Positions 2,814 through 4,139 of a stretch of 64,000 bases of DNA are shown here, piece by piece (positions within the stretch are counted from its first letter, which is position 1; every line of letters begins with the position of its first letter). The stretch lies in NCBI RefSeq assembly GCF_024700885.2, contig NZ_CP117016.1. One strand, written 5' to 3'. This stretch comes from Escherichia coli. Its GTDB lineage: Bacteria > Pseudomonadota > Gammaproteobacteria > Enterobacterales > Enterobacteriaceae. Below the pieces are notes generated by a model. It was not told the DNA's origin. It ran no database searches and saw only the letters and a list, made by a program, of their open reading frames with translations. A program made the position numbers and the translations under genes.

Positions 2814-4139
2814 ATGAAAAAAGCTAATCTTACAGGTACGTTGGTTTGCTTTGTCGCATGCCTTATTTTTTTGTCGTCCGGTGATATTTTTCGTGAAAAG
2901 CCAATCGCGCTAATATGGTTCCTTCGACAAAACATACTCTTTTTTACGGGAACCCTTGCGTGGTGTCTGATGACGCTGACGATGTGTTTATCGTTGCGTT
3001 CATCATGGCTTAACAAAGTGCTGGGCGGTCTGGATAAAGCATGGCGATTACATAAGTGGGCAGGAATATGCGCCATAGCGTTTGCTTTCGCCCACTGGCT
3101 GGATGAAAAATTACCCCAGTTATTCGTCGCCTTTGGCTGGCTTACTCACCCTGGTAAAATCGTTGATATTAACCTGACGCCAGTACAAGAAAATTGGCTT
3201 CATGCGGGACTGTTGGTGGGTGAATGTGCAATGTTTATTATGATAGCGATGATTTTCGTGTCTCTTAGTAAAAAAGTTCCCTATCATTTATTTCATCTTG
3301 TTCACCGTTTGTTCCCCGTCTTTTATCTGGCAATTGCCTTTCATGTGTTTACTGCTTTGTTTAAATCATACTGGTGGGAAACTCCTGCTGCGTATTTATT
3401 AATTTTAATTACTATTCCGGGCGTCTTTGCGGCTTTCATTTCGCTGCTGAAATTAAACGGTAGTAAAAACAAGCATCAGGCTACCATTAAAAACATTGTT
3501 AACCATCCGGGACAAATTACCGAAGTCACCCTTGAGCTGGAACATGCCATCGACTATTCTCCGGGACAGTTTGCATTCTTAACGTTCGCACACAGTAAAG
3601 AATCTCACCCTTTTACTATCGCTTCATATACCAAAGAGAAGAACACGTTGCGCTTTGCGATCAAACATTTAGGGGATTATACCTCGACTCTGGCATCCTC
3701 GATAAAAATCGGCCAGTCCGCCTTCGTTGAAGGGCCATGGGGAAAGTTTGATTTTACTCTCCCTTGCTCCCACCAGGTCTGGATAGCAGGAGGCATCGGC
3801 ATTACCCCCTTTATCGCCCAGCTTGAGTATCGTAAACATCATGGCGCGTCCTTTGTTCCTGTGGATCTCTGGTATTGCGTCAGCCGAAGCGAGGATGCCT
3901 GGTATATTGATAAACTGACCTCACTTTGTGCCCAGGCCAGGGTCACACTGCATCTGCTTGATGCGCATAAAGGTGAGCGCCTACAGGTGCACTATCTTAC
4001 TGATAAAATAGCAAATAAAGGTGACACCCATTTCTGGTTTTGCGGCCCACAGAGTTTTGCCAAAGCGCTCAGCAAAGGGTTATATGAAAATGGGATTGCC
4101 AGCCAAAACTTCCATTTCGACCGTTTTTGTATGCGTTAA
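2814..4139 (+). CDS. NOX/ferric-reductase-like flavocytochrome (FRD transmembrane domain fused to FAD/NAD(P)H dehydrogenase domain)
   Basis: 441 aa; H-x13-H ([15 protein letters not shown]) and H-x12-H ([14 protein letters not shown]) bis-heme motifs; HPFTIAS FAD motif; [11 protein letters not shown](P)H motif; C-terminal CGPQSF. Confidence 0.8.

Follow-up and report, generated by a model that had tools for sequence, protein, structure and literature searches.

Long and short forms of bacterial FRD proteins, the long form having three domains, had already been told apart by Zhang et al. in 2013 (PMC3591440), and in 2017 Hajjar et al. catalogued around 1,000 bacterial NOX proteins by motif filters (PMC5676040). 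These filters ask for an FAD motif of the form H[PSA]F[TS][LIMV], for two H-x12/14-H motifs that lie at least 20 residues apart within transmembrane (TM) helices, and for 3–7 predicted helices, six being expected. EcNOX, PaNOX, AmNOX and SpNOX were chosen from this catalogue. EcNOX (UniProt L2VL28, from Escherichia coli KTE10) was cloned and expressed and its topology was predicted to be 'very similar to NOX2'; its heme spectra were weaker than those of SpNOX and PaNOX, and it was then dropped (PMC5676040).

SpNOX residues H69/H83 and H129/H142 are established by experiment as ligands for the inner heme and the outer heme, Y122 stacks on the FAD adenine and F397 gates the nicotinamide (PMC11564096). 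SpNOX lacks the eukaryotic O2 site and reduces cytochrome c directly, it reduces ferric iron very poorly (kcat 0.05 s-1), its knockout has no phenotype, and its authors suggest that O2 might not be the physiological acceptor (PMC11564096). The physiological role of the roughly 1,000 catalogued bacterial NOX-like proteins is a recognized question in the field.

Here we describe a NOX-like gene in a 64,000-nt stretch of E. coli DNA (hereafter, the window). With a probability of roughly 85%, we read its product as a member of the bacterial NOX family (SpNOX-like, 'long-form bacterial FRD'), a transmembrane NAD(P)H:acceptor oxidoreductase that is self-sufficient. The gene and its parts are as follows.

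2814..4139, plus strand: NOX-like flavocytochrome coding sequence, 441 aa, identical to RefSeq WP_001305829.1
2946..3335, plus strand: predicted Ferric_reduct (PF01794) transmembrane heme domain, aa 45–174 (Pfam E 2.9e-14)
3051..3095, plus strand: TM3 pair, H-x13-H, with H80 for the inner and H94 for the outer heme, assigned from alignment and model
3282..3344, plus strand: Y157 and the TM5 pair H164/H177, H-x12-H, assigned from alignment
3486..3704, plus strand: predicted FAD-binding beta-barrel (PF08022, Pfam), aa 225–297, including HPFTIAS at nt 3606–3626
3783..4136, plus strand: predicted NAD(P)H-binding Rossmann lobe (PF00175, aa 324–420, Pfam)
3789–3812 and 4041–4049, plus strand: GGIGITPF and CGP, respectively, within the Rossmann lobe (translation)

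The open reading frame starts with ATG and runs without an internal stop, the minus-strand frame across the same interval has many stops, and the RefSeq CDS of the identical protein has the same start codon and extent. An Rfam search of window positions 1–6000 returned no family. In one 90% protein cluster the NOX-like protein is grouped with ArgP sequences, which we take to be a clustering artefact.

The initial annotation had claimed a fused enzyme on the strength of two histidine pairs and three dehydrogenase motifs, and all of these can be read from the translation where it placed them: H80-x13-H94 and H164-x12-H177, HPFTIAS at aa 265–271, GGIGITPF at aa 326–333 and CGP at aa 410–412. Such a set of motifs is far beyond chance. 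The annotation had also named three Pfam families, two of which hold, Ferric_reduct and FAD_binding_8 (E 1.4e-8, aa 225–297, with FAD_binding_6 at E 8.8e-7). The third, the NOX-specific NAD_binding_6 family PF08030, gave a non-significant match (E = 6, 16 residues only), and the NAD domain is instead matched by PF00175 (NAD_binding_1, E 6e-7, aa 324–420).

Across 59 aligned homologues of full length (32–88% identity), H80, H94, Y157, H164, H177, H265 and P266 are invariant in all 59 sequences, as are G327, G329, P332, C410, G411 and F438. H80/H94 align with SpNOX H69/H83, H164/H177 with H129/H142 and Y157 with Y122; F438 is the equivalent of SpNOX F397, each lying four residues before the C terminus. 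Two b-type hemes are predicted from this conservation of ligands.

An AF2 model built on the 59-homologue alignment (pLDDT 90.7, pTM 0.88) has six TM helices (aa 2–20, 33–59, 73–106, 123–152, 157–184 and 191–211) with a beta-barrel and a Rossmann lobe beside them; H80/H94 fall in helix 73–106 and H164/H177 in helix 157–184. Among solved structures, the best sequence match is SpNOX (8qt6/8qq7, E 4e-26), and phmmer also matches NOX5 (E 8.8e-9) over both the TM and the FAD region. Comparison of the model with the PDB by Foldseek likewise ranks SpNOX 8qt6 first, over the full length (E 1.8e-25, TM 0.76/0.84), followed by NOX5, NOX2 and DUOX1. Pfam, the AF2 model and Foldseek thus agree on the fused heme-TM and FAD/NAD(P)H architecture that had been proposed, and the cofactor sites and fold of the protein can be regarded as shown at the level of sequence and predicted structure.

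Set against the published filters, which follow the same motif logic as the initial annotation, the protein belongs with the bacterial NOX family. HPFTI (aa 265–269) fits the FAD pattern, GIGITP (aa 327–332) the NAD(P)H-site filter, and the two histidine pairs and the six helices of the model fit the bis-histidyl and TM-count filters. The model also has the SpNOX-like arrangement of a six-TM FRD docked on an FNR-type dehydrogenase, as judged by Foldseek against the PDB, with Y157 and F438 as the candidate FAD-stacking tyrosine and C-terminal gating aromatic. It departs from eukaryotic enzymes in two places. The eukaryotic-type O2-reduction centre (two His, Arg and a propionate) is incomplete: its second His, which we take to lie about four residues beyond the outer TM3 His, would correspond to H94+4, where the protein has E98. 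Glu occupies this position in 42 of the 59 homologues, and His is absent among the five commonest residues listed. The eukaryotic-type NAD_binding_6 lobe is likewise unmatched by PF08030. Nor is the protein an MsrQ/YedZ, a heme-only FRD next to msrP, since it has a fused FAD/NAD domain and there is no adjacent molybdoenzyme gene.

Database names point elsewhere. RefSeq calls WP_001305829.1 a 'ferredoxin reductase family protein' and one GenBank name is 'putative dioxygenase beta subunit', which would make it a soluble reductase component of a ferredoxin or dioxygenase system. The best NCBIfam matches are indeed the reductases BenC, MmoC, AntC and PaaE, but they cover aa 218–439 only and fall far below the curated cut-offs (84 bits versus 430 for BenC), whereas the N-terminal 210 residues form a six-TM heme domain in which the four heme histidines are invariant. 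The protein has no [2Fe-2S] domain, and its gene has no oxygenase genes nearby. Because the BenC/MmoC-type matches span the C-terminal half only, far below cut-off, the RefSeq name is a half-description. A soluble-reductase identity is very improbable, being effectively refuted by the NCBIfam scores, Pfam domains, AF2 model and Foldseek.

The initial annotation could not place such an enzyme in described E. coli biology. The novelty this implied is not supported, as the family is catalogued, EcNOX was cloned in 2017 (PMC5676040) and the protein is annotated in RefSeq. WP_001305829.1 is very probably EcNOX L2VL28 or an allele of it, because the only other E. coli paralogue that we found fails the FAD filter and is far rarer. 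This paralogue (P0065, 435 aa, 38% identical, in a plasmid context) has HPYTI at the FAD site and is carried on 56 public contigs, compared with at least 1,000 for the exact NOX-like protein. A literature search for WP_001305829, A0A135PT36, L2VL28 and the accessions of the neighbours returned no paper text, 'EcNOX' appeared only in Hajjar et al. 2017, and the literature on the physiology of bacterial NOX since 2018, as searched, yielded nothing for E. coli. The structural reading is right; the protein is of a kind described before, and it almost certainly has a name already.

The family around it is large. Clustered at 50% identity, homologues make up 436 clusters at E ≤ 1e-30 and 2,558 at E ≤ 1e-10; at 90% identity, more than 5,600 clusters match at E ≤ 1e-5, and a single peptide pattern gave at least 588 species-level genome matches. 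As an enzyme the protein is not of a new kind; the modest new points are the conserved cassette of LysR, AzoR-like and DUF1471 genes, the fact that this cassette is ancestral and still being lost, which explains yqfE, and the linkage of relatives to cytochromes c.

The cassette lies between rpiA and argP. A LysR gene is divergent from AzoR-like, DUF1471 and NOX-like genes in that order, so that the NOX-like gene comes last.

844..1740, minus strand: divergent LysR-family regulator, whose last 120–193 nt persist in most E. coli as the yqfE scar
1841..2475, plus strand: AzoR-like Flavodoxin_2 FMN/NADH oxidoreductase, first gene of the putative operon
2492..2752, plus strand: secreted DUF1471 protein (YdgH/BhsA/YhcN/RclB-like), 86 aa, no Cys
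2768..2792, plus strand: hairpin with an 11-bp stem in the DUF1471–NOX spacer (dG -19.7 kcal/mol, z -3.8)

The gaps between the three co-directional genes are 17 nt (AzoR-like to DUF1471) and 61 nt (DUF1471 to NOX-like). The hairpin in the second gap is no canonical terminator, because it has no U-tract, and a promoter and terminator scan of the cassette found no more sites than in shuffled sequences and no terminator between or after the genes. From the spacing and the absence of a terminator we infer that the three genes form a putative operon. PADLOC gave no defence-system match for the three neighbour proteins, and we know of no redox cofactor on record for DUF1471 proteins. The window's cassette matches that of E. 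coli MLI114 (NZ_CP117013.1) exactly. In its AzoR-like gene, 5 bp (GCGGA) are duplicated in tandem (1891–1895/1896–1900) and shift the reading frame, a change confined to the window's strain among the carriers (1 of 246).

The same four-gene cassette occurs in Salmonella, with identities of 51% for the NOX, 71% for the LysR and 73% for the AzoR-like protein. There it sits at a different chromosomal site, by yqgA/speC, with an integrase fragment at one locus. The G+C content of the three structural genes in the window (0.40–0.47, versus 0.51–0.58 in the flanks) suggests an older foreign origin.

Within E. coli, the distribution indicates loss. The NOX-like gene is present in 247 of 5,426 complete genomes, always chromosomal and in single copy. 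The 3′ end of the LysR gene (its last 120–193 nt, by rpiA) is kept in 5,406 of the 5,426 and the cassette in 232. NOX-like alleles have a dS of 0.05–0.15, compared with 0.08–0.14 for argP/scpA. Because dS equals that of the flanking argP/scpA and nearly all genomes carry the scar, the sequence evidence indicates that the cassette is ancestral at rpiA–argP and was inherited vertically, and that some 95% of complete E. coli genomes have lost it by deletion. Recent horizontal acquisition within E. coli is ruled out by the same two observations.

K-12 illustrates the outcome. Relative to the window, it keeps positions 1–1036, followed by a 57-nt remnant of the 3′ end of the AzoR-like gene, and resumes at 4154, so that its locus represents two deletions; the remnant is annotated as the pseudogene yqfE. 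yqfE of K-12 is thus the scar of cassette loss, and the statement in the initial annotation that K-12 has no fused enzyme proves correct, the K-12 locus holding this scar only.

These patterns bear on whether the gene is a decaying relic in the window's strain, an intact-looking reading frame with little or no current function. Deletion in about 95% of genomes is what such decay would look like, and roughly 18 of 60 evenly spaced carriers (about 30%) are themselves disrupted, whether by insertion of IS1, by a frameshift or because the 5′ half is gone. The widespread loss together with these disruptions shows that the function is dispensable. The strain-specific frameshift upstream points the same way, as does a dN/dS of 0.15–0.20, more than tenfold above that of argP/scpA, and by eye no Shine–Dalgarno sequence is obvious ahead of the ATG. 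Yet the reading frame is intact and keeps every catalytic residue, the cassette is conserved as a unit as far as Salmonella at 51% identity in the NOX gene, and dN/dS is well below 1 across alleles 2–5% apart. Comparison of alleles indicates that intact copies are under long-term purifying selection, looser than in the flanking core genes, and we consider it unlikely that the gene is a relic.

The loci of more distant relatives show which of these associations are old. Immediately adjacent to an Azonexus NOX homologue (43% identical) lies a divergent LysR gene (42.5% identity), which suggests that the LysR–NOX pairing is older than the AzoR-like and DUF1471 genes. The latter two were found beside NOX genes at 1 of 84 other loci, and are ruled out as family-wide partners, their co-occurrence being confined to the Escherichia/Salmonella clade. 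At 26 of the 84 species-level loci, mostly in beta- and gamma-proteobacteria, genes for DUF1924 and DHC c-type cytochromes, families confirmed by Pfam, lie directly upstream on the same strand. These cytochrome-linked loci often have a PepSY_2 gene as well; a two-component system and a divergent PepSY gene make up the rest. Judged from gene neighbourhoods, the linkage speaks for periplasmic proteins as acceptors in some of the family at least, and hints that relatives use acceptors other than O2. The E. coli and Salmonella cassettes contain no cytochrome c gene.

How would the enzyme work? By homology to SpNOX, the donor and the path of electrons would be as follows. The FAD of the C-terminal FNR-type domain would take up a hydride from cytoplasmic NAD(P)H, with F438 as the gate; FAD would then deliver single electrons to the inner heme b (H80/H164) and on to the outer heme b (H94/H177), from which they would reach an acceptor on the periplasmic face. 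O2, giving superoxide, is a likely acceptor in vitro. The physiological acceptor would more probably be a periplasmic molecule or protein, reduced within a LysR-controlled stress response.

The protein might nevertheless be a dedicated superoxide-producing NADPH oxidase, with O2 as its physiological acceptor and periplasmic or extracellular ROS serving signalling or competition. It passes all of the bacterial NOX sequence filters and shares its architecture and cofactor ligands with SpNOX, which oxidizes NADPH with O2 in vitro, and R38 at the outer end of TM2, kept in 49 of 59 homologues, could act as an arginine of the NOX2 R54 type, a structural equivalence that we infer. Against this, E98 replaces the second His of the eukaryotic O2-reduction centre; about a third of the relatives sampled show a linkage to periplasmic cytochromes c; the E. 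coli neighbours belong to stress-protection rather than ROS-producing families; and for SpNOX itself the authors' doubts about O2 and the silent knockout argue against such a role. A physiological superoxide generator is possible, if somewhat unlikely. As a separate observation made in connection with ROS production, the carrier strains include many extra-intestinal or animal isolates.

A second candidate role is reduction of Fe(III) or Cu(II) chelates in the periplasm for metal acquisition or homeostasis, as by yeast FRE. Ferric_reduct and FAD_binding_8 are the domains of FRE as well as NOX, databases name homologues 'iron reductase' or 'ferric reductase-like', and many relatives have PepSY-type proteins beside them, which elsewhere are associated with siderophore reductases. 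The cassette, however, contains no iron- or copper-uptake genes, and SpNOX reduces ferric iron with the low kcat given above. In a scan of the promoter and the spacer the best Fur-box match was 11/19, which about 60% of shuffles equalled; it is not above chance, so iron regulation is unsupported. A metal reductase is accordingly a distinctly unlikely identity.

Returning to the oxidoreductase with a periplasmic acceptor, a more specific proposal can be made for the E. coli cassette, although we advance it only as a long shot: the LysR, AzoR-like, DUF1471 and NOX-like genes may constitute an inducible envelope redox-stress module, in which the NOX-like enzyme would pass NAD(P)H electrons out to a specific periplasmic target and not make superoxide. 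The target might be a client of the DUF1471 protein, an oxidized quinone or electrophile, or damaged envelope proteins. If so, the module would be a self-powered counterpart of MsrPQ or of RclABC (a cytoplasmic flavoprotein, a DUF1471 protein and a membrane protein), and a genetically tractable E. coli strain would reveal a physiological acceptor for a bacterial NOX for the first time. The dedicated divergent LysR and the two neighbours co-conserved in E. coli and Salmonella offer a handle on inducers and partners, and natural, isogenic-like contrasts are provided by a single chromosomal site at which the alleles may be intact, frameshifted, IS1-disrupted or deleted. The c-type cytochromes DUF1924 and DHC beside about 30% of sampled relatives add a family-wide clue that supports protein acceptors.

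Among described systems, SpNOX (8qq7, 8qt6) is the closest in construction. Both proteins are single chains with six TM helices, H-x13-H and H-x12-H pairs for two b hemes (predicted in the E. coli protein), an FAD-stacking Tyr, HPF(T/S), a GxGxxP NAD site, CGP and, four residues before the C terminus, an aromatic gate, and both are without regulatory domains. They share only 22–27% identity and differ in length (441 versus 400 aa), and the model of the E. coli protein has a longer periplasmic TM3–TM4 loop (aa 107–122). Unlike SpNOX, it falls within a Gram-negative (periplasm-facing) clade whose members are roughly 420–450 aa long, and is encoded in a LysR/AzoR-like/DUF1471 cassette. EcNOX (L2VL28) is an E. 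coli protein chosen by the same four motif filters that the NOX-like protein passes.

NOX2, NOX5, DUOX1 and csNOX5 share the catalytic core and the heme, FAD and NADPH motifs (Foldseek probability 1.00). Identity to eukaryotic and cyanobacterial NOX is about 15–20%, and the E. coli protein is without their EF-hands, partner subunits and long extracellular loops; relative to eukaryotic NOX, a His of the O2-reduction centre is replaced (E98) and PF08030 is unmatched. In K-12, MsrQ (YedZ) with Fre uses the same FRD bis-heme membrane module to bring electrons to the periplasm from an FNR-type flavin reductase in the cytoplasm (PMC8228183, PMC11564096). There, the modules are on separate proteins and the acceptor MsrP is encoded alongside, whereas here they are fused and no MsrP-like neighbour is present. 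Finally, homologues in DUF1924–DHC–PepSY operons have the same architecture in 430–445 aa, at 35–39% identity, and follow genes for two small periplasmic c-type cytochromes and PepSY_2, with a divergent two-component system; the clade of E. coli and Salmonella instead has the AzoR-like, DUF1471 and LysR genes.

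In K-12, loss of the four-gene cassette (a divergent LysR regulator, AzoR-like, DUF1471 and NOX-like genes) that lies between rpiA and argP in the window has left a scar, the pseudogene yqfE. Comparison of the window with the K-12 locus, L002, shows two remnants.

844-1036 and 2388-2444: cassette remnants in K-12, matching L002 1882-2131

The LysR gene is represented by its final 193 nt and the AzoR-like gene by a 57-nt piece from its 3′ end. In other E. coli lineages the LysR remnant is just 120-126 nt long, and these differing remnants imply that the cassette was deleted several times independently in E. 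coli.

In the window, the composition of the cassette is uneven. G+C is 0.40-0.47 in the AzoR-like, DUF1471 and NOX-like genes versus 0.51-0.58 in the LysR gene and the flanks (window 2001-3750), so that the break falls within the cassette, with the regulator on one side and the structural genes on the other. At the downstream edge, the argP frame in the mechanical ORF list runs further upstream (4021-5103, +, with a GTG at 4021) and overlaps the NOX-like gene at its 3′ end. In the public 90% cluster to which the NOX-like protein belongs, NOX-like fragments stand together with ArgP sequences, a mixture that is probably an artefact akin to this ORF extension.

The AzoR-like gene of the window has its reading frame broken at about codon 17 by a short duplication.

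1891-1900 (+): tandem 5-bp duplication GCGGA/GCGGA, inside the AzoR-like gene (1841-2475)

The duplication is found in only 1 of 246 carrier genomes, that of strain MLI114, and PGAP annotates a shortened CDS of 186 aa with an internal start. For the source strain, the annotation also gives frameshifts in two other genes, the LysR regulator srsR (~10734-11629) and yqgD (~37149-37399), both at approximate coordinates mapped over from the MLI114 annotation.

A strong hairpin lies in the spacer that runs from the DUF1471 stop to the NOX-like start.

2768-2792: hairpin with an 11-bp stem and 3-nt loop (dG -19.7 kcal/mol, z -3.8)

It lacks a U-tract and persists, slightly altered, in other E. coli alleles; a role in processing, stability or attenuation is possible. 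Read by eye from the alignment, the equivalent position in Salmonella may carry an unrelated palindrome.

E. coli also encodes a second NOX-like protein, on contigs L006-L008.

5001-6308 (L006-L008): NOX-like paralogue, 435 aa

This paralogue is 38% identical to the NOX-like protein, has HPYTI in place of the FAD motif HPFTI and lies in plasmid-type surroundings (ParM/StbA, UmuDC-like, Tn3 transposase/resolvase and MFS transporter genes). Among more distant relatives, 26 of the 84 species loci (within L016-L084), chiefly from Rhodocyclales, Burkholderiales and other beta- and gamma-proteobacteria, share a conserved operon in the order DUF1924 (CxxCH), DHC diheme cytochrome c, PepSY_2 and NOX-like gene, accompanied by a divergent PepSY gene and a two-component system. 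The other genes of the operon precede the NOX-like gene at a distance of 0.03-1.3 kb. This arrangement suggests cytochrome c as electron acceptor in this branch.

Finally, Salmonella enterica carries the same four-gene set adjoining yqgA (DUF554) and speC (L003 and L004), with an integrase-arm fragment next to it in L004. In the E. coli window tRNA-Phe is a neighbour of yqgA, and on this analogy we suggest that the Salmonella cassette could lie in an island near tRNA-Phe, no tRNA having been located in L003 or L004. The yqgA/speC site of Salmonella differs from the cassette site in E. coli.
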